Shown: positions 16,663-54,939 of the stretch, piece after piece
How the letters are laid out: each line of letters starts with the position of its first letter
Numbering within the stretch: the first letter of the stretch is position 1
Assembly: GCA_945889495.1 (NCBI GenBank)
Contig: CAMDBU010000006.1
Location: 506 to 64,505, forward strand
DNA length: 64,000 bases
DNA from: Syntrophobacter sp. SbD2
GTDB lineage: Bacteria; Desulfobacterota; Binatia; UBA9968
Direction: 5' to 3'
Notes under the pieces: model-generated
The model's database searches: none
Seen by the model: only the letters and a program-made list of their open reading frames with translations
What the model was told of the DNA's origin: nothing
Translations under genes and position numbers: made by a program

Positions 16663-16732
16663 TATTACTTTGTAGTTTGTTAATGAATGGACTGTAGATA
16701 TTATATCGAATTGAATACTTTGGAATTGATTT

Positions 16733-16815
16733 TCCGCAAACCACCGTTGCCACCGTTACTTTGCGTAACGGTCACACACGCTACGCAAGTGTCGTTTTGA
16801 CACGACGCTTGCTAC
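16733..16815. repeat. direct repeat copy B (see 16247..16340)
   Basis: seen directly. Confidence 0.7.
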
Positions 16816-16866
16816 AACCACACATACTTTGCAATCCTCAACCGTCCAGCAACAGGACGGTCAGCA

Positions 16867-17241: not shown

Positions 17242-18050
17242 TCGCAGTTCTTGTAATTGCGAGCTTTACACTCACGTGCAAGTTTTTGTGCCGCAGCTAT
17301 CTGCTGTGTTGTCATCTTTGCTGCAACTATGTCTCTGTTTTTTTCAGCGTCTGCATTACTTTTTACCGCAGCCAAGTTCCACCACATGTGTGCACGTACA
17401 TAATCTTGCACAACACCTCGCCCGTTTCCATACATGATGCCTAAATTGTATTGTGCACGAGCAAGACCTTGTGCCGCTGCCAACTTGTACAACTTCACCG
17501 CCTCTGCATAATCTTGCACAACACCTTGCCCATTTTGATACATGAAGCCTAAATTGCTTTGTGCATCAGCAAGACCTTGTGCCGCTGCCAATCTATACAA
17601 CTTGACTGCTTCTGCGTAGCTTTGTACAACACCCTTCCCTACGTAATACATTACACCTAATTCATGCTGTGATAATGAGAGGCCTTGTATTGCAGACAAT
17701 TTTAATAAACGAACCGCCTCCGTATAATCCTGTACAACTCCTTTTCCATCAATTAGCATTTCAGCTAATTCAAACTGGGCAAGCATGTGACCTTGAGCTA
17801 TTGCCAAGTTAAACCACCGTATCGCTTCTGGGTAGTCCTGCTTTACGCCGAACCCATATTTGTACATCGCCCCAATCTGAGTTTGTGAATATGCATCGCC
17901 TCGTGCTGCTGCAATTTTAAATTTCTTAAGTGCCATCGCATAGTCTTCTTTTGCGAACGCAGCATCACCATCCTCAACTTCACCCGCCCAAACAACAGCA
18001 CTGACTACAATTGCCAGTGTGACAAAAATAGTTCGCAATATCGGCATCAC
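17238..18050 (-). CDS. Sel1-like repeat protein with N-terminal signal peptide
   Basis: 270 aa; repeated A..G.A.AQ..LG.MY..G.GV.QDY.EA..W motifs. Confidence 0.8.
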   Translation of the reverse strand: MMPILRTIFVTLAIVVSAVVWAGEVEDGDAAFAKEDYAMALKKFKIAAARGDAYSQTQIGAMYKYGFGVKQDYPEAIRWFNLAIAQGHMLAQFELAEMLIDGKGVVQDYTEAVRLLKLSAIQGLSLSQHELGVMYYVGKGVVQSYAEAVKLYRLAAAQGLADAQSNLGFMYQNGQGVVQDYAEAVKLYKLAAAQGLARAQYNLGIMYGNGRGVVQDYVRAHMWWNLAAVKSNADAEKNRDIVAAKMTTQQIAAAQKLARECKARNYKNCD

Positions 18051-18227
18051 TTATTTCCCTTGTAGTGACCACATCGTACATTACGCGCTTGTGCCACTAC
18101 CAAAGCACAAGCACTACAATGCGTTAGCTATTCTGATAGCGCTGCCGACTAAACTTTACATAGCTAGCGTAAATATAACCAAGATTGGAGCGAGGGCAGC
18201 ACAAGCAGTCGCTTGATATGAAATCAC

Positions 18228-18476
18228 CTAATTAACTTTTATAACCACATCGCAATTTCGGGCTTCGCTATTTGTGAGGTAAGAACAATTAATATTTCCA
18301 TTTATTACCTCGCCTTTTATTAGTGCACCATCTTGTTTTACCCAATCTTGCTCCTTCGTTCCGCATACTTTGTTTAATGCCTGGCGAATTGCTTTTGGGG
18401 AAACATTTTTATTTACTGTTATCAAAGCAGTTTGGAGCTGATTTCCCTGCTTCCATTGAGCGTTGACACCCACCAC
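18228..18476 (-). CDS. small hypothetical protein
   Basis: 82 aa ORF in AT-rich cargo; no recognisable motif. Confidence 0.3.
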   Translation of the reverse strand: MVGVNAQWKQGNQLQTALITVNKNVSPKAIRQALNKVCGTKEQDWVKQDGALIKGEVINGNINCSYLTNSEARNCDVVIKVN

Positions 18477-18605
18477 ATCTATACCGAGAAAATTATTTAT
18501 TTTATTTAATGCACCATTGTCAGTAAATTCAGATTATCTAGCTCGCGATCCCACCGCTTTGGATAGGCTTAAACTAAATAGCACTTTTTGAATAAGGTCA
18601 TGTTG

Positions 18606-20288
18606 CTACTGCTTTCGATATTTAGTGATCGAAAAAGCTGGTGCAATAGGACCCACTACGTGGGCAGTTTGGTAGACATAATCTTTATCTAAAAAATAGA
18701 CAGTGAATGCATCAGGACTCCCCACTTCGCCGTAGTCAACAAAAATGGTTCTAAACGTGTCATCAGAAATTTCGTCGAGGATTTTTTTATAAGATTCTGA
18801 AACAGCTTTCATTTTTTGGTAGTCAGCTGCTGAAATTACCTTTTGTTGCAACCATCCAGTGAGGCTATTCAAATCTTTATTTATATCTGTCGCTAATTCT
18901 TTTTTAGTGATTTTTCCTTTGTAATAAGCTAAACATTTTTTTTGCGCGGCAGTTTCATTTTTCACCCATTGACAATCTCCAAACTTCGTTTCGCTAATCG
19001 TCAATTTCTCAGCACTGCCTGACCGCCACACCCCAAGCCATCGATTATTAATGGATAGCGAATCCTGAGGCGCCGTCGCGGTTGCTGGCTGAGCAAGTAA
19101 ATATGACATGCCGGCTTCTTCAATAGCGCCATAAAAACTTTGCTGAAGGAATTTACCTAAACAATCTTGATCATTACAGTCAACCTTATAAACCCCTGAG
19201 TATGCTGTTTTATGGTCAAGTCGGCGTTTAGTTGCATTCTCTTCAGCGTATATATTAAGTCTTCTAATTGCCCATGCAATATTCTTAAAGTCTTCACGTG
19301 CACAGATTAATTGCAATCCTTTGTCACTGATATCACTGCAATTAGGCGGAAGAACATCCGCGTACGACGCGCTCTCTTTCATATGTTGCAAAATTAAATT
19401 GTAGTGTGATGTTTTGATATTCCAATTCTCTAAAGGTTTATTGTTATCATTCTTACTGGTTACACCTTCTCTGACCCCGTTTGATTCACCCTTAGTTTCT
19501 GGCTTTGCATCTGTGCGCTTAGCTTCTGTTGGTGGTGCCTGAACCACTTTATTGATATTCCTAACAAATGAAAGTGTGTCTTCATGACCATCGTTAGTTG
19601 TTAGTTTTAAAGTAAAGCTACCGTCCTTTGAGCTTATTTTTCTAAGTGCCCATACGACTGAAGTATTATTGTTTACGATGAGGCTCAGAATATCACTGCG
19701 GCTATCCCATTCCATTACTTTAACAGGAATCACTTTCCCATTAATTTCTATTGATTTATTGTCGCTTTTCAAGCTTATAACAACAGTGGCCTGATCAGTA
19801 TCACCCTTCCAGACACCGCTTAAATCATCTAAGGGATCACTTCCTTTAAAATCTATAAAGGAAACGATAGCAATTGTAGCGATTATCGATGCGATTCCAA
19901 TATACGCCAACTTATTTTCATCGGATTTTTCTTTTACGAATATCTTTTTGTAATAGTCTATGTTAACCCATCCACCAAAAACCAATGGCATAATAAAATA
20001 AGTTGATGCGTTTAAGTATTGCAATAATTTTATTTCTGGAAAGACTGATTCTAATAATGCTGTCAAAACACAACCGAGGGTTATTATCCCAAAGAGGAAC
20101 AGCCCCTTCTTCGACATTCCTAAGTGTACGTAATAAAAAACACCGAAAATAAATCCCCAAATATTGAATGCCGCCGTCACTCTTTCGCTTAAAGATAAGT
20201 TCTTAACTAAGGGGAGTTTCACACCACCGGCCTTGTCAATTAGATCAAATCTTTTTTTCCATTTACCACTAATTTCTTGCTCGGACAT
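18606..20288 (-). CDS. large membrane/extracytoplasmic protein with N-terminal DUF2628-like membrane module
   Basis: 560 aa; N-terminal NIWGFIFGVFYYVHLGMSKK resembles DUF2628; very AT-rich codon usage. Confidence 0.55.
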   Translation of the reverse strand: MSEQEISGKWKKRFDLIDKAGGVKLPLVKNLSLSERVTAAFNIWGFIFGVFYYVHLGMSKKGLFLFGIITLGCVLTALLESVFPEIKLLQYLNASTYFIMPLVFGGWVNIDYYKKIFVKEKSDENKLAYIGIASIIATIAIVSFIDFKGSDPLDDLSGVWKGDTDQATVVISLKSDNKSIEINGKVIPVKVMEWDSRSDILSLIVNNNTSVVWALRKISSKDGSFTLKLTTNDGHEDTLSFVRNINKVVQAPPTEAKRTDAKPETKGESNGVREGVTSKNDNNKPLENWNIKTSHYNLILQHMKESASYADVLPPNCSDISDKGLQLICAREDFKNIAWAIRRLNIYAEENATKRRLDHKTAYSGVYKVDCNDQDCLGKFLQQSFYGAIEEAGMSYLLAQPATATAPQDSLSINNRWLGVWRSGSAEKLTISETKFGDCQWVKNETAAQKKCLAYYKGKITKKELATDINKDLNSLTGWLQQKVISAADYQKMKAVSESYKKILDEISDDTFRTIFVDYGEVGSPDAFTVYFLDKDYVYQTAHVVGPIAPAFSITKYRKQ

Positions 20289-20372
20289 GGCGTTTCCTTT
20301 AATAAAAGTTTGTCTGAATGTCAGTCCTAATTTAACTCAAGATAGATACTGAGATCCCAGTTATAGCGCTGT

Positions 20373-20900
20373 CTAAATTAGCGAAGCAAATTCTATTGCA
20401 AGTAAGATAAAAATTATGAGCAAGGTGATCAATGCGCCCCAGATACTGGTTCCCCCGATTAGCGAAAAATGTAAGGGTGAGTTGGCCACCCTATGTTTGG
20501 TATCGATGTGATCTAGGTACTGCCCGTTAGCATATATTCCGCAGTATGCGACTACTCCTAGATAGAGTAGGTAGCCAACGATATCGCTTTTCGTAACGTA
20601 CACGGCAATTAAAAACGGGAAAATGGTTCCCCACCATAATACCTGTGCAGTTCGCATATACATTTTTCGGTAAGCGAACCAAAGAGATCCCAGTATCGCA
20701 GCCGGCCAATTCCAGGATCGAAAACTTACAAAAGATGCCCCAGCATTTGTATTGCAAAAGTTTTCAAATTGATAGCGGTAATAGTTAACGTTATTTTTTA
20801 TAAACCGCTCAAATTCCTCCGATGCAACAAACTCCGCAGTTATTCTGCGCTCACCTTCTACGCTTACTTTATTTGGTGTCTGTTGATCGCGGGAATTCAT
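20373..20900 (-). CDS. DUF2628 family membrane protein
   Basis: 175 aa; SWNWPAAILGSLWFAYRKMY hallmark. Confidence 0.65.
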   Translation of the reverse strand: MNSRDQQTPNKVSVEGERRITAEFVASEEFERFIKNNVNYYRYQFENFCNTNAGASFVSFRSWNWPAAILGSLWFAYRKMYMRTAQVLWWGTIFPFLIAVYVTKSDIVGYLLYLGVVAYCGIYANGQYLDHIDTKHRVANSPLHFSLIGGTSIWGALITLLIIFILLAIEFASLI

Positions 20901-21008
20901 TTTATTTAAGCCGCTTGCAAAACATTTTGTTGTCGGAAAAAGAAACGACTTATTTGTTTAGACTGTGAAAAACGCTATTTTTCTACTGCTGTTCAAACTG
21001 AAGAAAAT

Positions 21009-21236
21009 TTAAAATCCTCCGATGGTGCCAAACGGACTAAAGAGGCGTTTTGAGTCATTTTGGCTACAGTAATCGCAGTAATACTTTTTTGACTGCTTGA
21101 TCTCCACGTTTCGCATAGTTTGCAGCGTTGCTACACGCCGCTGATCTGGTGTTTTTGGTTTGATTGTTTTCGGTTGGATTTCATGTAGACGCATTGGGTA
21201 TTTAGCCAACTCTCCCATACCTAAGAGATGTGGCAC
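21009..21236 (-). CDS. hypothetical protein, paralog of 16867..17241
   Basis: 75 aa; LAKYPMRLHEIQPKTIKPKTPDQRRVATLQT. Confidence 0.45.
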   Translation of the reverse strand: MPHLLGMGELAKYPMRLHEIQPKTIKPKTPDQRRVATLQTMRNVEIKQSKKYYCDYCSQNDSKRLFSPFGTIGGF

Positions 21237-21257
21237 ATCACAGTCTTGTTGATACCG

Positions 21258-21779
21258 TCATTCACAAAACCTAAGCTGTTTATAACCATCGAAATATAAA
21301 TTAAGGGGTTTTCCGTCGATCTCAGCAGACCTCAGTTTATATCCTTTTGTTTCTAAGTTATATAGCCATTGGTAGGTAAGCTTCCCCTTTTTTTTCGTCA
21401 CTGTCGCTTCAATTATTACTAAAGTAGGGTTATTGGCATCCGTTACAAAACTTCGCCAGTTCACACTCCCTTCGAGAGCAACGCAGGCAGCGACAGAAAT
21501 CCCTGCTTCAGTTTTCTTCATCACTGCTATCTCCCCGCTCCTGGAAAAAAAGAAAAATATTGCGGCCAGAACGGCCACACTAGCTATTGGCATCGCCCAG
21601 TTTCGGTTTGAGGTCGCAATTGGTTGTTCGGGCATCCTTTCTTGTGATGCTACTTGTGCCGATAGACTAGGTGCATTTGCCGAAGATACAACCACATCAT
21701 CTTCTACTTTAGTTCCGCATGTGTCGCAGAACTTAACGCCTTGCAATAGTTGCTTCCCGCATCCTGTGCAATAAGCCAT
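21258..21779 (-). CDS. zinc-ribbon domain membrane protein
   Basis: 173 aa; N-terminal CTGCGK...CDTCG zinc ribbon, one TM segment. Confidence 0.55.
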   Translation of the reverse strand: MAYCTGCGKQLLQGVKFCDTCGTKVEDDVVVSSANAPSLSAQVASQERMPEQPIATSNRNWAMPIASVAVLAAIFFFFSRSGEIAVMKKTEAGISVAACVALEGSVNWRSFVTDANNPTLVIIEATVTKKKGKLTYQWLYNLETKGYKLRSAEIDGKPLNLYFDGYKQLRFCE

Positions 21780-21917
21780 ACGCTGCTCCCTATTTTCAGT
21801 TCATACCTTTGCCGCTACTAATCCCGATAACAGCCGTTTCAAAGTATTCCACCGTCCAGTACCAGTTTACGAATAAATCTGCGTGATACTGCAAGGGTCA
21901 GACACAGAACGCCGTTG

Positions 21918-22352
21918 CTAACGCTTGAACCCCCGACGCACCACCGCACTGACCGCCTCAATCTGTGCATCAATTTCACCACTCTCCACCGCTTTACGCA
22001 AAACTGCAAGCGTAGCATTCAATTCTGCCGCCGTCGTCTCTACCGCAGTTCGCCCTCGTGCCAATTCCACCACTTTGTTGCCGTATTTGACAGCAACACA
22101 CACCTTGCCACCGTCCACAGCCCAAAACCACGCTTTCACACGTTTGGGTTGCTGTACCACGCTGACATTGCCCGCCGCATCCTTTACACGTTTACTACGC
22201 ATAGCGGTGTAGACGGTACCCGCAGTTTTCGCCGCTGCCAGTGCTATTTGCTCATCCAGTTTTGCCAACAGCTTTTGACGACGCTGTATGACAGGGTTGT
22301 TTTCGCGTTGCGGTTTTGCGGCTACCAATTTCAGTGTGTTCAGTGTGCTCAT
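21918..22352 (-). CDS. hypothetical protein (element core)
   Basis: 144 aa ORF, no recognisable motif. Confidence 0.45.
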   Translation of the reverse strand: MSTLNTLKLVAAKPQRENNPVIQRRQKLLAKLDEQIALAAAKTAGTVYTAMRSKRVKDAAGNVSVVQQPKRVKAWFWAVDGGKVCVAVKYGNKVVELARGRTAVETTAAELNATLAVLRKAVESGEIDAQIEAVSAVVRRGFKR

Positions 22353-23611
22353 TTGTCGTTCTCCCTCTAGTTAAACTACTGAACACACGATAACGTCTGA
22401 TTTTTCAGAATACGAGTGAAGATTATTTTCACATATTGTTTGGTTTGTATAAATAACTATGACGCGAACAGAATGTTGTTTGTTGCCAGATTTGCCGTAG
22501 TTATACGTGCGATCACATTACTACCGAAAAAACGTGCAGCACCACACAGTCGCTTTGGTGCCCTAAAACTGGCCATTGATGTGCACAGGGACGGAAACGC
22601 TGCGCGGTAGCAGCGACTTGCAGTCACTATCCATAATGGACGCATTCGCATTTGTCAGCGAATTGGCGCAAGGAGAAACGAATTTGACACGAAGATGAAG
22701 CTGTGAGAACCCTACAGCTTGCGTCACAAGCAAGCACTGCCTACACGGCAACTTGCAAACTTGCAGTGGTCGTCACTTTGGCTGCTGCACTTAAGTTGCG
22801 TTTGATCAGCAGCACGTAAAAGGAGACCGCCAAACTGCCCTTTACCTCATACAGGTTGTGCCAAAGTGTTAGTGGTAAGAACTCAGCGAATGAGATTTCC
22901 ATATTGAGCCTGTTGCTTAAGGCTCAGTGTGAGTTGAATCTTGCGAATGGGTGTGTATTAAAAGCAATTCATGTATTCAATGCTTCAAATCATTTAATAG
23001 TTCGCGACTTTTTAAAACTACTAAAACTGGAAGTTAAAAAAAATCTGCAAGTCAGCAATACGTAATGAGCGTAGCGAATGAAGTAGTGCGACGCAGCAGA
23101 AACTGAGCGCGAAGCGTTCAGTTAAAAATAGACTGCCAAATAATGCTGCACGAGGCTATGGGTTGAGGTTTTTGTAACCATCTCTGTCAGCAAAACCTTC
23201 CAGCATTACAAAACCACCCTGTTGTGTCAATCATCAGCACCTGGCTGTTACATGGAACTGATACAGCACACGGCTACGCACTACACACCGACTACAGCGG
23301 TTAACGCTGAGACGCACGAAACAACGCCGCAAGCGTTTTGGTACAGCGTGGGCAAGCGTGGGTAGCTGAATGCTGCCTGACAACGCGATAACGCACGATA
23401 ACGTTGCTGAAGCGATTTACGCGACACACAGCACTGCACCCGCTATGTACAGCCCAATTCAGAATCAAATAGTTTCACTAAAGTATTTGGTCAGACGCGA
23501 ACTGCTTGAAATCATTGACCTCTTTTGCAGAGCCAGTTTCGGTCGTATTTTCGGAACAACGAATGCACAATAAATACACGACTATTATTTGATTAACGGG
23601 AGAAACGACAA

Positions 23612-24178
23612 ATGGCGCAAGCACGTACACTGAAGGAAAAAGAACTCAAACAACTACTGCAATTTATTGCTTTTCGCAAACACGCATTACGGAACCGCTG
23701 TATGTTGCTGATTACGCATTGGGCTGGAATGCGGGTTGGAGAAGTGGCTGCACTGCAATACTCAGATGTGCTGGCAGCAGACGGCAGCATACTTGCCGAA
23801 ATACGTTTGGCAGCAGATCAGACTAAAGGCGACAAAGCACGTGTTGTGTATGTGGCAGAAAAACTACGCAAAGAACTGCTGAACTATGTTCGCACTTACC
23901 CGCAGACTAACCCAACACGCCCCTTGTTTTACACGCAGAAACGCGACCACTTCACAGCAAACACTTTGGCACAGCACTTTTTCTGGTTGTACAAGGCGGC
24001 AGGGCTAAATGGTGCTTCGTCACATTCTGGCCGAAGGACTTTCATCACTACTTTGGCAAACAAGGGGGTCAGTGTGCGGTTACTGCAAGCTCTTGCTGGT
24101 CACCGTTCAATTACCACTACCCAAGTGTATATCGACGTAAATGACGCGATGAAGCGAGCGGCGGTGGAACTGGTGTGA
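23612..24178 (+). CDS. short tyrosine recombinase (catalytic domain only, phage-integrase family)
   Basis: 188 aa; R...HSGRRTF...LAGHRSITTTQVY (R-HxxR-Y catalytic residues). Confidence 0.75.
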   Translation: MAQARTLKEKELKQLLQFIAFRKHALRNRCMLLITHWAGMRVGEVAALQYSDVLAADGSILAEIRLAADQTKGDKARVVYVAEKLRKELLNYVRTYPQTNPTRPLFYTQKRDHFTANTLAQHFFWLYKAAGLNGASSHSGRRTFITTLANKGVSVRLLQALAGHRSITTTQVYIDVNDAMKRAAVELV

Positions 24179-24312
24179 GTGTCGTTTTGAAAGACACTTA
24201 TGCACGGACTGCTGTGGAATCAGGCTAAAACTTCGGTGTGGGAGTTTTGCTGCTGCAATCTTGTTGAGATTGCTGCAACCGTCCAGCAACGAGACGGTTG
24301 CACTTCGAAACA

Positions 24313-25020
24313 TTATTTCTTTTTGCTGGGAACCACAGACAAACCGCACTGCGCTGATTTCGCAACAGTAGGTAGGGGCGGCAGTGCCAAGCCGTTACGA
24401 GCCAAGTAGATGAGTTCATCCAGCTTGTTCATGTAATCGCGCAAGTCGCCTGTTGACTCCACCAGTTGCAAACAGTACAGAGCCTGCTGATCCGACAAAT
24501 GAACGTCTTCGCTCTGCAGAATTAATTGCGCTCTAGTTAGAACTTGACGTGCGCTCAAAGCAGGGAAATTTATCAGGCCACAGCGCGAACGCAGACTTTT
24601 GTGAATGTTCATCGCATCGTTGGTCGTGACAATCAACATGACTCTGTCCTGCACGGCATCAAGCGCTTTCCAAAAATTGGCGAAATCCCCTTTTAGGGTA
24701 TCTAGTTCCTCCGCCACGATAAACAATTTCTCTCCCTCCTCAAGAAATATAACGGAGGTCGCGCTCTGTAAATAAGTACGTAGATTTTTCATGCGCACGA
24801 GTTCTTCCATGTCTTTGTGTTCAATTCGTGCGTGTGCGCCGCCGATAGCCACTGGCAGTAAACGCGCCGCTGTACTTTTTCCAGTACCGTTCGGCCCCCA
24901 AAGCAAGATGTTTCCTTCAAGTGCCTTGTTTGCATAGGCGTCAATTCGGGTTTGCACAGCCAGGCTGGGGTAGATCACATCGCCAAGTGACTGGGGTGCG
25001 TATTTGATAGCGGTTTTCAT
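24313..25020 (-). CDS. clamp-loader-like (RFC/DnaX-type) AAA+ ATPase
   Basis: 235 aa; KYAPQSLGDVI...LLWGPNGTGKST (RFC box II/III), Walker B IFLEEGE, SRC arginine-finger motif LRSRCGLINF. Confidence 0.7.
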   Translation of the reverse strand: MKTAIKYAPQSLGDVIYPSLAVQTRIDAYANKALEGNILLWGPNGTGKSTAARLLPVAIGGAHARIEHKDMEELVRMKNLRTYLQSATSVIFLEEGEKLFIVAEELDTLKGDFANFWKALDAVQDRVMLIVTTNDAMNIHKSLRSRCGLINFPALSARQVLTRAQLILQSEDVHLSDQQALYCLQLVESTGDLRDYMNKLDELIYLARNGLALPPLPTVAKSAQCGLSVVPSKKK

Positions 25021-25092
25021 GTTTTGTGTTCCTTTGTGTAGTGGTTTTTTTTGTGTATGTCGAAAAGGGGAGTTCCCTCCCCCTTTCGGTCA

Positions 25093-25878
25093 TTAAGCTA
25101 CTTTTGCGAAAACATCCGCGTTGGCCGCCATCCCCAACAAATCGCTAGCCTCTTTGTTGAGCGCCTGATCTGCATCTTTTTGACCAGCGCGAACTTTTGC
25201 CATGCGTATCAGCAGTGCCTGAACGAGAGCTTCGTTGATGTCGGACAAAACACCCACAATAGAAACCATGCCGTCTGGTGCAGGTTTAGCCAGCAAAACA
25301 GCGTAATCCCCAGTGACGCCCGCCAGCGACAGCGTTGCCAATGGAGTAATTGTCGCTAGTTCCACGTTCGCTTTGACTTCGCCAGTAGCCGAAACAATCG
25401 CAGCACGTTTCGCCTGTGCCGCTTCTGACACCACCATATCGCGTTTGATTTCTTCGATGCCGCCTTGTTCTGCGATGTAAGCGGGCAGATCGTTAGCGGT
25501 GATAGCTTTAGAAATCGCCGCTTTGAGCACGTAGGCATAGCCATGCGCACGTTTGCGATCTGAGCTGAATACGAAACGCACGAACATCGTGAGTGTCGTC
25601 GTGTTGCTCTGCACTTTGACTCCATCCGCTGTAAGCCGCGCACAAAGCTCATTGCGCAGCGTCTTACGGCTGTTGCCATCAGCGTTTACGAACTTGTTTT
25701 GGAATACGTCCAAGCAGCCCGCAAGCAACGCGTACAGCCCATCATTAGCTTTCTTGTAGTCAGTTATTTCCCACTGCTGACGACGCTCAGACAGAGCGTC
25801 CAGAGACTGGACGATGCCATTTGCAATAATCATGTTGTCGTTCGACGGGGTAAAGGCGGTTTTGACAGATTTGCTCAT
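25093..25878 (-). CDS. hypothetical protein upstream of the AAA+ ATPase (likely start ATG 25876-25878 with GGAGA RBS)
   Basis: 262 aa; ORF track version starts 37 codons earlier. Confidence 0.5.
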   Translation of the reverse strand: MSKSVKTAFTPSNDNMIIANGIVQSLDALSERRQQWEITDYKKANDGLYALLAGCLDVFQNKFVNADGNSRKTLRNELCARLTADGVKVQSNTTTLTMFVRFVFSSDRKRAHGYAYVLKAAISKAITANDLPAYIAEQGGIEEIKRDMVVSEAAQAKRAAIVSATGEVKANVELATITPLATLSLAGVTGDYAVLLAKPAPDGMVSIVGVLSDINEALVQALLIRMAKVRAGQKDADQALNKEASDLLGMAANADVFAKVA

Positions 25879-26017
25879 TTTGATTCTCCGATTTAAAAGT
25901 CGGCGCGATGCTGGTGGCGGAATTGCCAGAAGTTGTATCGCGCTGACGAATAGGATTAGATCACTAAGAACTAATAAATCAGTCAACAACCAATAATCAG
26001 TTATTATCTGTAGACAT

Positions 26018-26953
26018 ATGAAAGAACAATTGCTTCCGTGGTACCTCCGTAGCGCGGATTTCTACAAACCGAACTGGCACACACGGCCTACGATTGGCTT
26101 TGAGTTGCTGTTTGAGTTTTTGCGGCTCAGCCCTAGCTATGAACTGGCCCGCAAAGCCAGCATGGAAGGGCTAAGCACTGCTGACCAGCTACTATTGCCG
26201 CCAGATTTTGAGCAGGTAAAAAACACCTATCAGCTCTTGGGCGATGTGCAAAAAATCTTGTTTCGGCAATGGTGGATCGCAAGAGGACTCAGCACCTTTG
26301 GCAATCCCTACGCACGCCCAAAATTGCACGCAGTCGCACAACTGGCAGGTGGGAAAGATATTTCGGCTGAAACCCTCGTAGGTAACTTCGAAAGTTACCT
26401 AGCTGGAGCGCGTCATGAGGAAGGGCTAGTGGATAGCGTGCTCATCGCAGTCCCTTTGGGCCTACGTCAATCAGAAATCCGCAGACAGATGTCCGCTATT
26501 CTTACTGCCTATTCAGGCCATGAGCAAAACTCACGGCAAAGTCCATTGATAAAATTGCAAGGCAAGCGGCTGCGATCAAAGGTGCTGTTCAATGGCCTAC
26601 GACTGCTTTGGTTTAAAGCTGCAAAACCCCAATGGGAACACTGGCGGCTGGGTGCTAAATCAAGATTCAGCGTCACCTATTCCAAAGAACTCAATCCTGC
26701 CAATCCCCGTAGAGTGGTCAGCACGCTGGAATCGTACGATAGAGAGATGATGACAAAAATCACCAATCGCGCGCTGAAGAAATTCGAATCCATTGCGGAG
26801 AACGCAGCAAGAGGGCGATTCCCTTCGCAAGACCCAGTCCATCCAGTAGATTTTCAGTATCCGTTTCTTGCCAAACGAATACAGCGCAAAAACACATGGG
26901 AACAAGAGGAGAAAGCACGGTTACTTGCGGCATTCCGCAGCCGTCGGCATTAG
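26018..26953 (+). CDS. hypothetical protein
   Basis: 311 aa ORF adjacent to integrase; no motif recognised. Confidence 0.5.
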   Translation: MKEQLLPWYLRSADFYKPNWHTRPTIGFELLFEFLRLSPSYELARKASMEGLSTADQLLLPPDFEQVKNTYQLLGDVQKILFRQWWIARGLSTFGNPYARPKLHAVAQLAGGKDISAETLVGNFESYLAGARHEEGLVDSVLIAVPLGLRQSEIRRQMSAILTAYSGHEQNSRQSPLIKLQGKRLRSKVLFNGLRLLWFKAAKPQWEHWRLGAKSRFSVTYSKELNPANPRRVVSTLESYDREMMTKITNRALKKFESIAENAARGRFPSQDPVHPVDFQYPFLAKRIQRKNTWEQEEKARLLAAFRSRRH

Positions 26954-27101
26954 TGCAAGACCGTCCCGTTGCTGGACGCTTGCTGAACGTAACAGCCCAG
27001 CACGACCCAGCCCACTCACGTATTCGCCCCTATTTCACCGTCGGTTCGGCGGTGATTTTGGTTTGGTGCTGCCGCAGAGGGCTGTCGTGCAAATCCGAAA
27101 C

Positions 27102-28370
27102 TCAGGCTTTCTGCCGCTTCTTCGTCGGTTTCATCGACTGCAATTTAGCCACGTTCATTTCGTTCTGGTAATGACTGCCGTAGAAACGTGTGATCATTTC
27201 CGCGCTAGTTCTGGCATTTTGCGCCAACGTATTCCAGTCGATGTTGTCGCCCTTAGTAATCCGAAACATGATTGCTGTGTGACGCAGGCTATACAACGTG
27301 CGCACCGTACTTTTCGCATCCAGTCGCAAATCAGTCACTTCTAGCAAGTGGTAAAACAGTCGCACCAGCTGTACGTAAGCGTAGTCTCTGTTGCGATGCT
27401 CTGGCATAAACACGTAATCGTCGTCTTTAGCCAATTTCCGTTCAGCTTGATATTCTCGTTGCCGTTCATACACTTCAACGGCGATGGGCATACTGATGAA
27501 GGGCTTGTTGTGCTTTTTGGTGGTTGGGGGTGACAAGCGCAAATACGTGTTGTCCTTTCGCACTACTGCCACATGCGAATGCTTCAGCACCTTAATATCT
27601 GATGGCCGCACGTAAGTGTTGACCATAAACAAGATCAAGTTATGCAACTCTTGTGTAAATCGCATCCGCCGCTCTGCCTTACCTTGCGCATTACGCACAA
27701 CGATCTCAGTGCCTACTAATGCCTTCGCTTTGTTATGCAGTTTCGTGTATTCCCAACTATTAAAATAACCACGCGGGTCATCTTCCATAGTGATGGTGGG
27801 AAACGCGGGTAAGTGCGGGATGATTTGCTTGCGGTGGGCGTGCTTTAACACTTTACGCAGCAGCGATTCGTGTAACTTAAGCGTTGCGACCTTCAGCCCT
27901 TTTTCCGTCAGCGTGTTTAAGTAAGTCTCTATAACCGTGTAATCAATCTGCCCCACATCGTATGTGCGGAAATACGGCAGCATGTGTACACGCAGACGGC
28001 TTTGTTCGTTGACGTTGATGCTTGCGCTGAGTTCCCCGCGCTTGATGCGTGACTCTTGCAACTTCAGCATCTCTTTCGCGCAAACCTCAAAGCGCGAATT
28101 TTTACCAATAACTAAACCACCCGTCTTACGCACAAGCAGCTCTTCGTAAAAGGCAATGGCTGCCTTAAACGCTTCGTTCTTCTTATCAGTTTTTGTAGTG
28201 CGTTTGAAAATTCTTCCGCTATCGTAAAAACGTGCCCAATAAAATGGGGAGGCGTCGATGCGGAATATGACTAGCTTGCTTGGATAATTCGGTACAGATT
28301 CAACAGTAGAGGGAATAGGAACTGTTCTGTGCCTACTAATTACCAAAGCTGTTTCATGCTTAGTATCCAT
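27102..28370 (-). CDS. int: tyrosine-type site-specific integrase (P4-like, ~420 aa)
   Basis: C-terminal LYSLRHTAIMF...Y catalytic box; N-terminal arm-binding-like region; located at element end next to tRNA-like att fragment. Confidence 0.88.
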   Translation of the reverse strand: MDTKHETALVISRHRTVPIPSTVESVPNYPSKLVIFRIDASPFYWARFYDSGRIFKRTTKTDKKNEAFKAAIAFYEELLVRKTGGLVIGKNSRFEVCAKEMLKLQESRIKRGELSASINVNEQSRLRVHMLPYFRTYDVGQIDYTVIETYLNTLTEKGLKVATLKLHESLLRKVLKHAHRKQIIPHLPAFPTITMEDDPRGYFNSWEYTKLHNKAKALVGTEIVVRNAQGKAERRMRFTQELHNLILFMVNTYVRPSDIKVLKHSHVAVVRKDNTYLRLSPPTTKKHNKPFISMPIAVEVYERQREYQAERKLAKDDDYVFMPEHRNRDYAYVQLVRLFYHLLEVTDLRLDAKSTVRTLYSLRHTAIMFRITKGDNIDWNTLAQNARTSAEMITRFYGSHYQNEMNVAKLQSMKPTKKRQKA

Positions 28371-40400: not shown

Positions 40401-41435
40401 ATGGCAACACCGAATCACCCGTTCCTCGCCGCCTGCCGCCGCGAACCGACTTCCTTCACGCCTGTCTGGCTCATGCGCCAGGCCGGCCGTTACATGGAAG
40501 AGTATCGCAAGCTGCGCGCTCAACATGGCTTTCTCGAACTGTGCAAAAAATCCGATCTCGCCACCGAGATCACCGTCACGCCGGTGGAAAAACTCGGCGT
40601 CGACGCGGCGATCTTGTTCGCCGACATCTTGCTCATCCTCGAACCCATGGGCGTCGGCCTGGAATATTCCAAAGGCGACGGCCCGGTGCTACACCACCCG
40701 GTGCGCAGCGGCAAGGATGTCGACGGCTTGAAGGAATTCAACGTCGAGACCGAGCTCAGCTATGTCTACGAGTCGGTGAAAAAAATCCGCAAGGAATTGA
40801 AAAACAAAGTGCCGCTCATCGGTTTCGCCGGCGCGCCATTCACCCTGGCGTCTTACTTGATCGAAGGCGCCGGCTCGCGCAACTACGTTCATACCAAGCG
40901 GCTGTTCTACTCGGCGCCGGAAGCCTGGAAGCGCTTGATGGAGCGGCTCGCCAAAGTCATCGGCGAATATTTGAACTGCCAGATCGCCGCCGGCGCCCAA
41001 GCGGTGCAGATCTTCGACAGCTGGGCCGGCTGTCTGACACCCAACGACTACGAACAGTTCGTTCAACCCTACACCAAAGCGGTGATCGACGCGGTGACGC
41101 CGGGCGTGCCGGTGATCAATTTCAGCACCGGCACCACCGGCTTGTTGAAAAATATCCGCGCCGCCGGCGGCGATGTCATCGGCCTCGACTGGCGCGTCAA
41201 TCTCGACGAAGGCTGGGCCGCCGTCGGCCACGATGTCGCCGTCCAAGGCAACCTCGATCCGGTGGCGCTCTTCGCCTCGCCCAAAGAAATCAAAAGCCGT
41301 GTGGCGGAAATCTTGAAACGCGCCGCCGGCCGCCCTGGCCATATCTTCAACCTCGGTCACGGCGTCCTGCCGGAAACGCCAGTGGATCATGTCATCGCCA
41401 TGGTCGACGCCGTGCATGAGCTCAGCGCGCGGTGA
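40401..41435 (+). CDS. hemE: uroporphyrinogen decarboxylase
   Basis: 344 aa; PVWLMRQAGRY signature. Confidence 0.92.
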   Translation: MATPNHPFLAACRREPTSFTPVWLMRQAGRYMEEYRKLRAQHGFLELCKKSDLATEITVTPVEKLGVDAAILFADILLILEPMGVGLEYSKGDGPVLHHPVRSGKDVDGLKEFNVETELSYVYESVKKIRKELKNKVPLIGFAGAPFTLASYLIEGAGSRNYVHTKRLFYSAPEAWKRLMERLAKVIGEYLNCQIAAGAQAVQIFDSWAGCLTPNDYEQFVQPYTKAVIDAVTPGVPVINFSTGTTGLLKNIRAAGGDVIGLDWRVNLDEGWAAVGHDVAVQGNLDPVALFASPKEIKSRVAEILKRAAGRPGHIFNLGHGVLPETPVDHVIAMVDAVHELSAR

Positions 41436-41436
41436 G

Positions 41437-41535
41437 GGGAATGGAGTGATGGAGTACTGGAGTATTGGAGTAATGGTCAAGACCCTCCCCTCCGGCCCAA
41501 CACTCCAACACTCCATTACTCCATCACTCCACTCT
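41437..41535. repeat. ~100-bp imperfect palindrome of TGGAGTAN octamers (copy 2 of family)
   Basis: left arm GGAATGGAGTGATGGAGTACTGGAGTATTGGAGTAATGG, right arm is its near reverse complement; 20-nt central loop. Confidence 0.8.
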
Positions 41536-41544
41536 TGACCCACC

Positions 41545-42438
41545 ATGCCTTATCAAGCGATCTTGCTCATCGCCTTCGGTGGTCCAACCGCTCCGGAAGA
41601 AATCAGACCGTTCCTCGCTCGCGTCACCAAAGGTATCCCGATTCCACCCCAGCGGCTTGAAGATGTCGCGCATCATTATGAGGCGGTGGGCGGCAAATCG
41701 CCGCTCAATGAAATCACAACTCGCCAAGCCAACGCCCTGCGACTTGCGCTGAATAGCCAGCTGCCGGTCTACATCGGCATGCGTAACGCGGCGCCGTTCT
41801 TCAGTGGAACGTTGAAACAAATGGCGGCCGATGGCGTGAAGCACGCCCTTGGCTTCATTCTGTCGTCCCACCGCACTGAAGCGAGCTGGGAGCGCTATCA
41901 GCAAAATATCGCCGATGCCCGCGCCGAGCTTGGCGACGGCACGCCGGAAGTCGACTATTGCGACGGCTGGCATGACCATCCGCTGTTTGTTCAAAGCTGG
42001 CTGGAGCTAATCCAAGCGGCGGCCAAGGGCAGCCAGGCGCCGCTCATCTTCACCGCCCACAGTTTGCCGACGGCGATGGCGGCGCGCTCGCCCTATGTCG
42101 AACAGCTCACCGCCAGCGCCCAGCTGATCGCGGCCGGGCTCCATCGTCAGAACTGGTCGCTGGCCTATCAAAGCCGCAGCGGCCGGCCAAGCGATCCCTG
42201 GTTGGAACCCGACATCGGCGCTGCCATCAAGAAGCTCGCCGGCGAAGGCCACCGAGAAGTCATCGTCGCACCCATCGGTTTTGTCTGCGATCATGTCGAA
42301 GTGCTCTACGACTTGGACATCGAAGCGAAGAAGATCGCCGACGATCTCGGCGTGCGGCTTGTGCGCGTCAGCTGCCCCAACGATCATCCGACGTTCATCC
42401 GCATGGTCGCCGAGGTCATCGGCGAAAAGATCAAATGA
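41545..42438 (+). CDS. hemH: ferrochelatase (possibly coproporphyrin ferrochelatase CpfC given hemEHY context)
   Basis: 297 aa ferrochelatase family. Confidence 0.85.
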   Translation: MPYQAILLIAFGGPTAPEEIRPFLARVTKGIPIPPQRLEDVAHHYEAVGGKSPLNEITTRQANALRLALNSQLPVYIGMRNAAPFFSGTLKQMAADGVKHALGFILSSHRTEASWERYQQNIADARAELGDGTPEVDYCDGWHDHPLFVQSWLELIQAAAKGSQAPLIFTAHSLPTAMAARSPYVEQLTASAQLIAAGLHRQNWSLAYQSRSGRPSDPWLEPDIGAAIKKLAGEGHREVIVAPIGFVCDHVEVLYDLDIEAKKIADDLGVRLVRVSCPNDHPTFIRMVAEVIGEKIK

Positions 42439-43862
42439 CTCCTCGCGTCATCGTCATTGGCGGCGGCATCGCCGGCCTGGCCGCCGCCCACCGGCTCACG
42501 GAACTGGCGACTGAGAAGTCGCAAAGCATCGACGTTAGATTGCTCGAAGCTTCACCGCGCCTGGGCGGCGCTATCGGCAGTGAGCGAGTCGGCGACTTTC
42601 TCGTCGAAGCCGGTCCCGATTCGTTCATCAGCGAAAAACCTTGGGCGTTGAAACTCTGCCAGCGCATCGGTCTGGCGCCGCGGCTGGTGTCGACCCAATC
42701 GGCCTATCAGAAAATCTACATCGTCCACGATGGCAAGTTGGTGGCGCTGCCGGAGGGCTTCTTCCTGCTCGCGCCGACCCGGCTCTGGCCGTTCATCCAA
42801 ACGCCGCTGTTCTCCTGGGCCGGCAAACTACGCATGGCGAGGGAGCTGTTTTTGCCGCGCGGCGAACCGACCGGCGACGAAAGCCTCGGCGCCTTCGTGC
42901 GCCGCCGCTTCGGCGACGAAGCGTTGGAGCGCGTCGCTCAACCGTTGGTCGGCGGCATTTACGCCAGCGATCCCGACCGACTGAGCCTCAGCGCCACCAT
43001 CCCGCGCTTCAAGGAAATGGAGCGGGACAAGCGCAGCGTCATCTACGCCATGTGGGCGGCCCAGCGCGAGCGGACGAAAAAAGCCGCTACCGGCAGCGGC
43101 GCGCGCTGGAGTTTGTTCGTCACTCTCGCCGGCGGCATGCAGGAGCTGGTTGACCAGCTCGCCGAGCGTTTGCCCAACGGCAGCGTAGAATTGAACCGCG
43201 CCGCGACGGGGTTGAAGCGAAACAGCGATGGCACTTGGAGCGTCGCCGTCGGCAGCGCAGAAATCATCGACGCCGACGCGGTGATCATCGCGACACCGGC
43301 ATTTCGCGCTGGCGCTTTACTCGGCGCCATCGACGCCAACGGGGCGGCTGAGCTGAAAGCGATTACCTACGCCTCCACCGCCACCGTCAGCCTAGCTTAC
43401 CGGCGCAAAGATTTTCCCCAGGCGCCCAACAGCTTCGGTTTCGTCGTGCCCGCCATCGAGCGGCGCAAGATCATGGCCTGCACCTTCAGCAGCTTGAAAT
43501 ATCCCGGCCGCGCGCCCGACGATTGCATCTTGCTGCGCGCCTTTGTCGGCGGCAGCTTGCAAGCGGAATTGTTCGAGCAGAATGACGCCGACATGGAGCA
43601 CACCGTGCGCGGCGAACTGGCGAGCCTGCTCGGCGTCAGTGCCGCGCCGCTTTTCTCGCGCATCTGGCGCCATCCCAACTCGATGCCGCAATATCACGTC
43701 GGCCACGACGCGCGCGTGAGCCGCATCGAAGGCGCGTTGAAACCGTTCCCCACCCTGGCGCTGGCCGGCAGCGCCTATCACGGCGTCGGCATCTCCGACT
43801 GCGTCCGCACCGGCGAAGCAGCCGCGGAAAAAGTCTTTGCGCACCTGCTTCCGACTTCGTAG
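42435..43862 (+). CDS. hemY: FAD-dependent protoporphyrinogen/coproporphyrinogen oxidase (HemY/CgoX)
   Basis: 475 aa; N-terminal VIGGGIAGLAAA dinucleotide fold; 4-bp overlap with hemH. Confidence 0.85.
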   Translation: MTPRVIVIGGGIAGLAAAHRLTELATEKSQSIDVRLLEASPRLGGAIGSERVGDFLVEAGPDSFISEKPWALKLCQRIGLAPRLVSTQSAYQKIYIVHDGKLVALPEGFFLLAPTRLWPFIQTPLFSWAGKLRMARELFLPRGEPTGDESLGAFVRRRFGDEALERVAQPLVGGIYASDPDRLSLSATIPRFKEMERDKRSVIYAMWAAQRERTKKAATGSGARWSLFVTLAGGMQELVDQLAERLPNGSVELNRAATGLKRNSDGTWSVAVGSAEIIDADAVIIATPAFRAGALLGAIDANGAAELKAITYASTATVSLAYRRKDFPQAPNSFGFVVPAIERRKIMACTFSSLKYPGRAPDDCILLRAFVGGSLQAELFEQNDADMEHTVRGELASLLGVSAAPLFSRIWRHPNSMPQYHVGHDARVSRIEGALKPFPTLALAGSAYHGVGISDCVRTGEAAAEKVFAHLLPTS

Positions 43863-43920
43863 GGTGCGCCGTGCGCACCATCCGGTGGTCGGTGCGCGCG
43901 GCGCACCCTACAAAAAAAAG
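43859..43920 (+). other. long GC-rich hairpin (13-bp outer stem GTAGGGTGCGCCG/CGGCGCACCCTAC) followed by A8; possible factor-independent terminator without U-tract
   Basis: seen directly. Confidence 0.35.
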
Positions 43921-49131: not shown

Positions 49132-49449
49132 CTACGCCGCGCGCCGTTTGGTCTCGACTTGCACGGCAATTCCCGCTTTCGCCAGCATGTTAATTAATTT
49201 GTCCACGCTAAAGCGGCTGATCTCGCCTTTGAGCAGATTACTAATGCGCGGCTGGGTCTCGGCAAAAAACGTTGCGGCTTGCGCCTGAGTCCAACCTTGA
49301 TCTTCAATGTAGCGCCGCAAGTCGATCATCAAATCCGCGCGGATTTTTAAGTTCGCGGCTTCCCACGGGTCGAAGCCCAGATCTGCAAATACATTCTGAC
49401 TGCCACGCGAGAACGTCACTCTGCCAACTTCAGATGGTTTTTTGACCAT
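49132..49449 (-). CDS. higA: HigA-type XRE-family antitoxin
   Basis: ~106 aa from ATG 49447-49449; HTH region GWTQAQAATFFAETQPRISNLLKG. Confidence 0.7.
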   Translation of the reverse strand: MVKKPSEVGRVTFSRGSQNVFADLGFDPWEAANLKIRADLMIDLRRYIEDQGWTQAQAATFFAETQPRISNLLKGEISRFSVDKLINMLAKAGIAVQVETKRRAA

Positions 49450-49771
49450 GGAGGGCCTGCGCTTCTTTGAAACGCTCCTGGCCGATGACGATGTCGCGCT
49501 TGGAGGTTTTTTGCGTTTTCTTTTGGAACGCGTGAAGGACATAAACACCCTCGTCAAATTTTGTCACATAGAAAACCCGGAACGCGCCACCCGTTTGAAT
49601 GCGAATCTCGTAGGCTCCCGGCCCGATGATCGGCATGGCCTTGAAATCGCTTGGGCTCTCACCGCGCTGTACGGCGCGCAGTTCGAAACCTGCTCGGCGT
49701 CTAGCTTCGCCGGGGAATTCCAGCAAATCGCGACGCGACGCACCGATCCAAACCGGCAGCTTGTCAGCCAT
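49430..49771 (-). CDS. higB: HigB-like RelE/ParE-superfamily toxin
   Basis: 113 aa; ...YVLHAFQKKTQKTSKRDI... hallmark; toxin upstream of antitoxin with 20-nt overlap. Confidence 0.75.
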   Translation of the reverse strand: MADKLPVWIGASRRDLLEFPGEARRRAGFELRAVQRGESPSDFKAMPIIGPGAYEIRIQTGGAFRVFYVTKFDEGVYVLHAFQKKTQKTSKRDIVIGQERFKEAQALHGQKTI

Positions 49772-53926: not shown

Positions 53927-54060
53927 TTCGGAATATCTCTCGCAAAGGCGCAAAGGCCGCAAAGGTCGGAGAATCGGAATGAACATCTCGGATAATGGTT
54001 TCACCCTTTCTTTTCCGAACTTGGCGCCTTTGCGTCTTTGCGAGAGGAATATCCGATCCC
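53927..54060. repeat. repeat-rich structured intergenic region: CGCAAAGG x3 tandem (53941-53967) and ~40-bp imperfect inverted repeat (53928-53968 vs 54017-54060); TCGGAAT motifs
   Basis: seen directly. Confidence 0.6.
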
Positions 54061-54180: not shown

Positions 54181-54939
54181 ATGGCGCAAAAATTCTACGT
54201 AGTATGGGCCGGCAGACAGACTGGCGTGTTCACCGATTGGGCGACTACCCAACGTGCCGTCGACAAGTTCGCCGGCGCGCGCTTCAAATCTTTCCCGACC
54301 CGTGCGGATGCTGAGCAAGCATTCGCTCACGGCGGCGGCGCGAGCCGTTCTGCGCCAAGCGCGAACCGCCCCAAAGGCAGCAGTTCCGACAGCGCGCGGC
54401 GCGCCGCCCACGTCGCCCACCAGTTCGATGTCAGCATCTATTGCGACGGCGCCTGCGAGCCCAACCCCGGCCGCGCCGGCTCCGGTGTCGTCGTCTATCG
54501 CGGCGGTGAACTGGTAGAGCTGTGGTACGGCCTCTACAACCCCATGGGCACCAACAACACCGCCGAGCTGAACGCACTCTATCACGCCTTGCGCATTGCC
54601 GAAGCGGAGATCGACAAGGGTAACAGCGTCGAGATTTGCAGCGACTCGGCCTACTCGATCAACTGTATCCGCACTTGGGCGCCGGGCTGGGAAAAGAAAG
54701 GCTGGAAACGAGCCGACGGCGAAATTAAAAACTTGGAAATCATCCAGGCCTGCTACGGGATCTTCCTGCGGATCAAGAAAAAACTAACTCTCACCCATGT
54801 CTCCGCCCATGTCGGCACCGAAGGCAACGAACTCGCCGACCGCATGGCCATGCTCGGCGCCCAGCGTCGGGAAAAAGAACTGCGGCTTTATGAGGACGAG
54901 ATGGATATTCCGGCGTTGCTCAAGCTGCGGACAGGATAG
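54181..54939 (+). CDS. rnhA: ribonuclease HI with N-terminal RNA-DNA hybrid-binding domain (RNase H1-type)
   Basis: 252 aa; N-terminal KFYVVWAGRQTGVF.W hybrid-binding domain; catalytic DGAC...E...D...HVGTEGNELADRMA. Confidence 0.85.
   Translation: MAQKFYVVWAGRQTGVFTDWATTQRAVDKFAGARFKSFPTRADAEQAFAHGGGASRSAPSANRPKGSSSDSARRAAHVAHQFDVSIYCDGACEPNPGRAGSGVVVYRGGELVELWYGLYNPMGTNNTAELNALYHALRIAEAEIDKGNSVEICSDSAYSINCIRTWAPGWEKKGWKRADGEIKNLEIIQACYGIFLRIKKKLTLTHVSAHVGTEGNELADRMAMLGAQRREKELRLYEDEMDIPALLKLRTG

Follow-up and report, generated by a model that had tools for sequence, protein, structure and literature searches.

The hemE-hemH spacer and its octamer palindrome

The 64,000-nt stretch of DNA analyzed here (hereafter the window; contig CAMDBU010000006.1 of Syntrophobacter sp. 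SbD2, assembly GCA_945889495.1) contains two intergenic palindromes built from tandem octamers, one between hemE and hemH (A1) and a shorter one between a CorC-like and a VOC gene (A2). Both belong to a family whose arrays elsewhere bracket a small PF05635 gene, and they are probably (at roughly 0.6) members, lacking an open reading frame (ORF), of a family of selfish cassettes related to the intervening sequences (IVSs) of 23S rRNA. The two loci comprise the following features.

40401 to 41435, in a co-directional row with hemH and hemY: URO-D gene (hemE)
41436 to 41544, + strand: hemE-hemH spacer holding A1, 109 nt
41439 to 41476, + strand: A1 5' arm, AATGGAGT GATGGAGT ACTGGAGT ATTGGAGT AATGG, 4.6 units of NNTGGAGT
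41477 to 41496, strand not set: A1 loop, tcaagaccctcccctccggc, 20 nt
41497 to 41534, + strand: A1 3' arm, CCAAC ACTCCAAC ACTCCATT ACTCCATC ACTCCA, inverted units NNACTCCA
41545 to 42438, in the same co-directional row: ferrochelatase gene (hemH)
42435 to 43862, in the same co-directional row: amino-oxidase gene, HemY-like
10085 to 11398, + strand: CNNM/CorC gene
11405 to 11431, + strand: A2 5' arm, a decayed outer unit (AATGGGGG) and then ATTGGAGT AATGGAGT ATTGGG
11435 to 11470, + strand: A2 3' arm, CCCACC ACTCCATT ACTCCAAC ACTCCTTC ACTCCA, longer than the 5' arm
11476 to 11889, - strand: glyoxalase/VOC gene

Read directly, positions 41437-41535 consist of ggggaaTGGAGTGATGGAGTACTGGAGTATTGGAGTAATGG, 20 nt, and then CCAACACTCCAACACTCCATTACTCCATCACTCCActc. 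A repeat search returned a pair of 38-nt A1 arms with 87% complementarity and 20 nt between them. Tandem Repeats Finder (TRF) resolved the arms into the unit TGGAGTNN with a period of 8, present in 4.6 and 4.4 copies in the two arms and in opposite order. The units share the core TGGAGT with a purine at position 7, and their positions 7-8 read GA, AC, AT, and AA. The loop holds neither an ORF nor a recognizable remnant of a PF05635 gene, and the element fits tightly into the junction, 6 nt after a stop codon and 13 nt before a start codon. The nearest named relatives of the encoded HemH are Candidatus Binatia, at 76-79% identity, and the window probably derives from this group. A similarity to the loop of L124 had suggested a verrucomicrobial origin, which was rejected in view of these HemH relatives. 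Among the matching contigs (L001-L006), the hemE-hemH element recurs with an identical array layout in four further independent assemblies, while a fifth contig (L005) stops within A1; the repetition of the layout in independent assemblies indicates that A1 is not an assembly artifact.

A2 occupies a 77-nt spacer on which the CorC-like and VOC genes converge. Its core palindrome has arms of 21 nt (11411-11431 and 11435-11455) around a 3-nt loop, with the right arm extending to 11470, and positions 7-8 of its units read AA and AT. Both elements have the TGGAGT array on the 5' side and the ACTCCA array on the 3' side. The sequence-only reading, which had described a palindrome of about 100 bp made of tandem octamers around a 20-nt loop and a shorter copy between convergent corC-like and VOC genes, was accurate for both elements and for the genes flanking them. 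It had also allowed that these two copies might be the only ones in the genome. Within the window, all 10 matches to TGGAGTNNTGGAGT with at most one mismatch (0.16 expected, an excess of about 60-fold over chance) fall in A1 and A2; other genomes carry many copies.

RNA folding, proposed in that reading as one check, gave strong folds for A1 (-62.2 kcal/mol on the + strand, z = -7.9; -74.5 kcal/mol on the - strand) and for A2 (-40.6 kcal/mol, z = -5.5). A further check that it proposed, for terminator function, came out negative. Strong stem-loops, one of them between convergent genes, are what transcription terminators or attenuators would offer, but neither arm is followed by a T-run (the tails after the A1 and A2 arms are ctcttgaccc and gtgcgtcagt), a terminator scan called none at A1 or A2, and A1, like most of its relatives, sits inside an operon a few nucleotides before the next start codon, so that this explanation is very improbable. 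Rfam returned nothing at A1 or A2 at the gathering level, and in E-value mode only sub-threshold miRNA-precursor models, i.e., generic long hairpins.

A1 is an inserted element

A1 was inserted into the hemE-hemH junction, because the spacer measures 10 nt in a sister lineage and 109-115 nt in the occupied lineages. The empty site is found in contig L207 (HemH 86% identical to that of the window), where the site reads TAAgtcgggcgccATG, and the gene tables of the P0003 contigs (85% identical) give an equally short spacer. The spacers of L208 (80% identical) and L209 (79% identical) are 113-115 nt long and filled by a homologous element, which begins with TGGAGTGA TGGAGTAC in L209, as in the window, and has a decayed left arm in L208. 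The loops differ among the window, L208, and L209. The filled site of the window reads TGAggggaa[...]ctcttgacccaccATG.

The TGGAGTRN unit across genomes

A scan of 596 Gb of genome sequence for three consecutive units found at least 120 stretches, compared to about 17 expected by chance; the counts of genome loci in this and the following sections rest on the matches listed. TGGAGTRN stretches occur in Verrucomicrobiota, Planctomycetota, Desulfobacterota, Bacteroidota, Binatia, Nitrospirota, Cyanobacteria, and others, and the carriers are metagenome-assembled genomes (MAGs) of many phyla, with long-read chromosomes among them. Among 395 junctions, 93% have a purine at position 7, which was not part of the query. 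Arms typically contain 3-5 units, and the number of units varies between orthologous sites. Amongst 45 short hairpins, 44 have the TGGAGT array first and 1 has the reverse order; this order is a real property of the element because it reads identically on both strands. The hairpins lie between co-directional genes in 28 of the 32 cases that could be classified, often at a distance of 3-20 nt from the neighboring stop and start codons. About 60 more loci are solo arrays, which show no strand bias relative to genes (14 vs. 13).

Arrays of permuted hexamers with the same period of 8 served as controls in viral contigs, where TGGAGT arrays form 47 stretches compared to 26 and 32 for the permuted controls. 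Plain array counts are uninformative because the controls are nearly as frequent, and what remains specific is the order of the arms, the purine bias at position 7, and the association with a gene (see below): position 7 is a purine in 89% of the viral TGGAGT arrays, whereas the permuted arrays show no such bias and form inverted pairs at most occasionally. The similar frequency of permuted arrays in viral contigs, together with the differing unit numbers at orthologous sites, would suit neutral, microsatellite-like slippage products with no function or mobility and an accidental palindrome. Nevertheless, we regard this as scarcely credible, as the heptamer TGGAGTR recurs across phyla with a 93% purine preference at an unsearched position, the arm order is 44:1, the arrays stand in a fixed relation to a conserved gene and keep their unit where the synonymous sites of that gene are saturated, and the motif is about 60-fold above chance in the window.

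Several other repeat arrangements were observed among these loci. Contig L106 (CBDHHR010000034.1, a ‘Metamycoplasmataceae’ MAG) is over its whole 8 kb a kilobase-scale satellite made almost wholly of ACTCCANN units; contamination of the bin by host or eukaryotic DNA is one possible source, and an extreme expansion of a ACTCCANN-type unit is another. In Calothrix MAGs (L037, L046), TGGAGTGA arrays adjoin heptamer arrays. Intergenic composite blocks, in which different arrays lie side by side, occur in Bacteroidota, Verrucomicrobiota, and Planctomycetota MAGs (L101:2650-2900, L102:1370-4650, L085:1069-1290, L017, L049, and L098), and their units include AAAGGCAC, ACAGAGGC, AAAGTTCC, AATTAGGA, ATTGCGGA, ACCTGAAA, and TACCGAG.

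The arrays bracket a PF05635 gene

In 7 of about 119 listed genome loci, from different phyla (L031, L036, L053, L057, L111, L120, and L074, the last of which is cut), a distance of 430-600 bp separates the two arrays, which enclose one ORF of about 144 aa. The enclosed ORF matches PF05635 (23S_rRNA_IVP, E = 8e-19) and TIGR02436 (four helix bundle protein, 6e-20). A profile search of metagenomes found 467 relatives, of which the best 80 were inspected and 70 had enough flanking sequence to judge. In 64 of these 70, a TGGAGT array precedes the gene and an ACTCCA array follows it; 5 have a single array and 1 has none. The arrays abut the gene, with median gaps of about 8 nt to the ATG and about 18 nt from the stop codon. 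The subfamily is large, with 5,200 clusters at 90% identity.

The cassette gene is also constrained in its orientation. In 35 loci it runs in the same direction as both neighbors, no locus has it antisense to both, and its contexts include operon junctions between an ABC ATPase and an MCE-like gene (the latter judged from the encoded peptide ends), between an ABC ATPase and an ABC-2 permease (from translations), and between cytochrome b and Rieske genes. Seven cassette contigs also hold a gene-less TGGAGT hairpin in the preceding spacer. Many contigs encoding an identical protein (P0130) all carry it at the same cytochrome b/Rieske site in one symbiont population, and because all copies are at one site they provide no evidence for or against recent transposition. 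Arrays of this kind probably break assemblies, because many cassette contigs are only 0.5-1 kb long and L005 ends inside A1.

The crystal structures of homologs, PDB 2gsc and 2rld, contain five chains each, and the Xanthomonas S23p-type protein has been described as a pentameric toroid (PMC4990558). PF05635 is homologous to Avd of diversity-generating retroelements (DGRs) (PMC10053308). The cassette protein has no PADLOC or PHROG match, no transposase domain is present in the gene-bearing form, and Rfam gave no match to the full cassette of L053. In L111 and L036, the GGAG of the last units is located about 10 nt ahead of the ATG and may serve the cassette ORF. As a general explanation of the unit, Shine-Dalgarno or anti-Shine-Dalgarno mimicry (GGAGUGAU vs. 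GGAGGUGAU) was rejected, since the 4-nt GGAG core alone fits and the solo arrays have no strand bias. CsrA-type ANGGA sites were likewise rejected, as they fit in some units only and the motif is paired.

Other gene subfamilies and other array units

Two further PF05635 subfamilies are bracketed by arrays of a different unit. The second subfamily, with at least 8,000 clusters, also matches PF22296 (bAvd) and is found at rpsF-ssb-[gene]-rpsR-rplI, ahead of trpG-trpD, and in other operons, with GTGTGGGA/GTATGGGG arrays upstream and complementary CCCACACN arrays downstream. A third subfamily has ATTGGTTN upstream and NAACCAAT downstream. The array unit thus co-varies with the protein subfamily, as each of the three carries its own octamer, and the 5' arm is C-poor in every subfamily. 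One exception to the inverted arrangement was encountered in a Planctomycetota MAG (L010:250-1100), where G-rich arrays (GGGAGTGT, GGGAGGAA, GGGAGTTT) lie on both sides of a subfamily-2 gene in direct orientation, which may represent two abutting elements.

Inverted arrays of short units were also found around another type of small gene, GxxExxY (TIGR04256/PF13366 PDDEXK_3), in three contigs, which suggests that cassettes with a tiny ORF and array ends form a general class.

L337, 3070 to 3580: GxxExxY gene region, arrays ACAGGATAA/TTATCCTGT
L022, 2187 to 2453 with flanks: GxxExxY gene, arrays CACGAAA/TTTCGTG
L047, 3316 to 3582 with flanks: GxxExxY gene, arrays CACAGAT/ATCTGTG

The window itself contains a second palindrome of similar architecture, upstream of an RNase H1 gene (54181-54939), with a fold of -65 kcal/mol. 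It constitutes a separate array family outside the TGGAGT family; no GCAAAGGC arrays were present in any bacterial locus fetched, and no associated gene was found.

53937 to 54046, strand not set: second palindrome, tctc GCAAAGGC GCAAAGGC CGCAAAGG, 58-nt loop, GCGCCTTTGC GTCTTTGC gaga

In viral contigs, arrays of this second family (‘ctcGCAAAGGCGCAAAGGCGCAAAGG’) are mostly solo and located directly before start codons, with two inverted pairs (L327 and L336).

The unit is conserved rather than the pairing

The two variable positions of the unit, when compared between the two arms of the hairpins, match no better than chance (0.41 vs. a null of 0.50; 54% at position 7 and 29% at position 8), and the stem therefore consists of 6-bp blocks split by mostly unpaired dinucleotides. 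This comparison led us to reject both an origin of the arms by inverted duplication and selection for a perfect or continuous helix. The cassette gene is under strong purifying selection (pN 0.16, dN/dS about 0.08 where measurable), and the arrays retain TGGAGTR although the synonymous sites of the enclosed gene are saturated. The conserved object is accordingly the unit itself, placed in opposite orientation at the two ends, a pattern that resembles mobile elements whose ends carry repeated binding sites for a protein.

Conservation of the unit without conservation of pairing at the variable positions could also be read as a regulatory signal, in which the arrays are sites for an oligomeric RNA- or DNA-binding protein (the cassette pentamer or a host factor) that regulates the flanking genes in the manner of TRAP, each subunit taking one short motif with an 8-nt spacing, the palindrome being a by-product. 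The typical 3-5 units per arm alongside a pentameric toroid (PMC4990558), the co-variation of unit and protein subfamily, and the GGAG placed ahead of the ATG in L111 and L036 would agree with this. On the other hand, solo arrays favor neither strand relative to genes (14 vs. 13), the window has no PF05635 gene, and a spacing of 8 bp fits poorly with the recognition of duplex DNA; we regard regulation of this kind as distinctly unlikely.

Another explanation reverses the relationship between hairpin and gene. The hairpins may be independent repeats useful to the host, acting as mRNA stabilizers, processing sites, or insulators at operon junctions, while the four-helix-bundle genes are cargo that landed in their loops, much as some insertion sequence (IS) elements target repetitive extragenic palindromes (REPs). 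The placement of the hairpins at operon junctions is indeed tight, the hemE-hemH element persists in lineages whose HemH is only 79-80% identical, and in genomes the hairpins and solo arrays outnumber the gene-bearing cassettes. However, landing cargo would not readily account for both arrays abutting the ORF in 64 of 70 subfamily genes, and the three protein subfamilies with an octamer each would each need their own target specificity. A mere hairpin has no need of a 44:1 arm order, and the unpaired variable positions argue against selection on the helix as such. A host role with later cargo is thus unlikely, if less so than the regulatory alternative.

Comparison with known systems

IVSs with an S23p ORF occur in the rRNA of Leptospira, Coxiella, Xanthomonas, and Brucella, and those without an ORF in Salmonella, Yersinia, and Campylobacter. 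An rRNA IVS is an extended stem-loop in place of a tetraloop, and that of Coxiella is 428 nt long with an S23p ORF in sense orientation to the rRNA transcript and a 28-bp terminal inverted-repeat stem, which RNase III cuts in the middle (PMC4990558). ORF-less IVSs of about 100 nt are found in other bacteria, and an origin from mobile elements has long been proposed (PMC4990558). The elements described here share with these IVSs the ORF family (PF05635/S23p, a pentameric four-helix bundle) and its sense orientation to the host transcript, the terminal inverted repeats that form a long stem (in A1, the 38-nt, 87% complementary arms at -62 kcal/mol), the existence of both ORF-bearing (about 430-750 bp) and ORF-less (about 100 bp) forms, a sporadic distribution suggesting horizontal transfer, and sites that tolerate an RNA cut. 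The sense S23p/PF05635 ORF is present in the full-length relatives and absent from the window copies.

Unlike the IVSs, which reside in 23S rRNA helices 9, 25, or 45, the present elements have an operon junction of an mRNA as the host transcript; A1 and A2 both lie outside 23S rRNA, and Rfam detected no rRNA in the window. Their repeats are also conserved octamer arrays with unpaired variable positions rather than a unique 28-bp complement. Excision by RNase III has been demonstrated for the IVSs and would be expected here by analogy.

The sequence-only reading had called the family octamer-based and REP-like or MITE-like (MITE, miniature inverted-repeat transposable element), and had been unable to assign it to a named family. 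The octamer palindrome family is confirmed, as is a MITE-like, non-autonomous insert, given the empty site in a sister lineage and the copies in many genomes. The window copies have the terminal inverted repeats, small size, lack of coding capacity, and presence/absence polymorphism of MITEs; they depart from them in that no target-site duplication was seen and in that the gene-bearing partner encodes only a PF05635 four-helix-bundle protein in place of an autonomous transposase. The REP part of the proposal does not hold, as there is no GTAG-type short palindrome. No Rfam family corresponds to the elements; the rRNA IVSs are their named relatives, since the same arrays bracket a PF05635 gene elsewhere.

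The Correia/NEMIS elements of Neisseria and ERIC of enterobacteria are likewise inverted-repeat inserts of about 100-150 bp that are co-transcribed with their neighbors, and according to De Gregorio et al. their stems are reportedly RNase III substrates or modulators of mRNA stability. They are the closest match for the way in which the present element probably works. They differ in being classical MITEs with unique terminal inverted repeats and TA duplication, confined to a single genus or family, and their sequences are not similar to the present element, their arms lack tandem units, and they have no full-length form that bears a four-helix-bundle gene. REPs are imperfect palindromes of 20-40 nt with a GTAG-type head, mobilized by the Y1 (RAYT) transposase. 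REP/BIME elements with RAYT (REPINs) are similarly abundant, intergenic, palindromic, and non-autonomous, but the present arms are octamer arrays without a GTAG head and are tied to a non-enzymatic four-helix-bundle gene. On the features examined, the window copies are neither REPs nor classical MITEs nor terminators. A hairpin with a GTAG...CTAC head as in REP elements does exist as a single copy elsewhere in the window, at 43856-43914, with 24-nt arms (TTCGTAGGGTGCGCCGTGCGCACC and GGTGCGCGCGGCGCACCCTACAAA); its span includes the hemY stop codon, and an A8 run, not a T run, comes after it.

Opposed copies of a short motif at two ends, with the motif conserved and the spacer bases not, are also known from transposon ends (the TnsB sites of Tn7, Mu, and maize Ac/Ds and En/Spm) and from foldback elements with inverted repeats made up of short tandem units. 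Those elements encode or depend on a known transposase, however, and none is seen here, and the period of 8 bp falls short of the usual size of a binding site on duplex DNA. The cyanobacterial short tandemly repeated repetitive (STRR) heptamers are comparable as short tandem units in intergenic DNA, but have a period of 7 instead of 8 and a narrow taxonomic range; we know of no description of them bracketing a gene in inverted orientation.

Proposed mechanism

The full cassette is organized as 5'-[TGGAGTRN]n, a gene of about 144 aa for a four-helix-bundle protein (PF05635/TIGR02436, S23p/Avd-like), and [NYACTCCA]n-3', placed in sense orientation in the very short spacers between the genes of a host operon. 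The window copies carry both terminal arrays and lack the gene, as in ORF-less rRNA IVSs. With a stop codon only 6 nt before it and a start codon only 13 nt after it, A1 is presumably part of the hemE-hemH-hemY mRNA. In this transcript the two arrays could pair as an interrupted duplex of about 38 bp, which RNase III may cut by analogy with the rRNA IVSs; the cut would separate the hemE message from the hemH-hemY message with a break that is harmless to either. The conserved unit would be a site recognized by a protein, the likeliest being the pentameric product of the cassette, which by acting on both ends could allow gene-less copies to persist or move in trans.

Several observations weigh against this proposal. 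A1 folds better on the non-coding strand (-74.5 vs. -62.2 kcal/mol), which does not favor selection on the mRNA strand, and the preference for the sense strand among the cassettes is modest (47 of 70, p = 0.006, with loci that are not independent). No PF05635 homolog was detected in the window by tblastn, and no recognizable transposase or recombinase is associated with the cassette. No direct repeat or target-site duplication was seen at the single comparison of empty and filled sites, which involves diverged lineages, and the case for mobility consists only of presence/absence and the many different insertion contexts. The gene-less hairpins (44) and solo arrays (about 60) listed from genomes far exceed the gene-bearing cassettes (7), which leaves the direction of derivation (from cassette to hairpin, or from hairpin plus cargo) unsettled, and some solo TGGAGT arrays may be unrelated microsatellites.

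Other features of the window

Rfam identified a Polynucleobacter-1 RNA at 22534-22670 on the + strand (93.5 bits vs. a gathering score of 37), inside a stretch of low GC content at about 16000-28000. This stretch forms an island of 39-50% GC in a window of about 60% GC and was probably acquired horizontally; it contains a 108-bp tandem repeat (17399-17660, 2.1-2.2 copies, 78-84% matches) inside an ORF at 17238-18050 on the - strand. Between two CoA-transferase genes lies a pair of small genes (49132-49771, - strand), tagged as PF13744 HTH_37 and PF05973 Gp49 in the matching contig L001, that looks like a HigB/HigA-type toxin-antitoxin system.

Implications for PF05635 proteins and rRNA intervening sequences

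The elements may be part of a large and undescribed class of selfish cassettes, in which a tiny gene sits between inverted arrays of 7-9-nt units, each gene subfamily has its own unit, and the arrays are binding sites of a pentameric cassette protein. Such a class would include at least three PF05635 subfamilies and probably GxxExxY/PDDEXK_3, inserted in sense orientation in operon junctions of many phyla, with the classical 23S rRNA IVS as a special case within rRNA and the gene-less hairpins as non-autonomous derivatives. This generalization is tentative, and we hold it at somewhat less than even odds. No description of the sequence, of octamer hairpins of this kind, or of the array-plus-gene architecture was found in the searchable literature, the coverage of which excludes most subscription journals.

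The origin and spread of rRNA IVSs and the role of the S23p ORF have been open questions since the early 1990s, and we know of no function for the members of the Avd/PF05635 family outside DGRs. The PF05635 genes considered here comprise well over ten thousand clusters (5,200 in one subfamily and at least 8,000 in another) that appear to travel as compact units within subfamily-specific inverted octamer arrays, in sense orientation in operon junctions, and probably leave gene-less hairpins. If the proposal is correct, the S23p/Avd-like proteins would gain a concrete nucleic-acid target, within a model in which the protein binds the array, the RNA stem is processed, and the ends are recognized in trans, and the elements could be found by a simple sequence signature. 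The proposal would also account for the strong hairpins and the microsatellites with octamer units that recur in MAGs of Verrucomicrobiota, Planctomycetota, Desulfobacterota, Binatia, and Bacteroidota.
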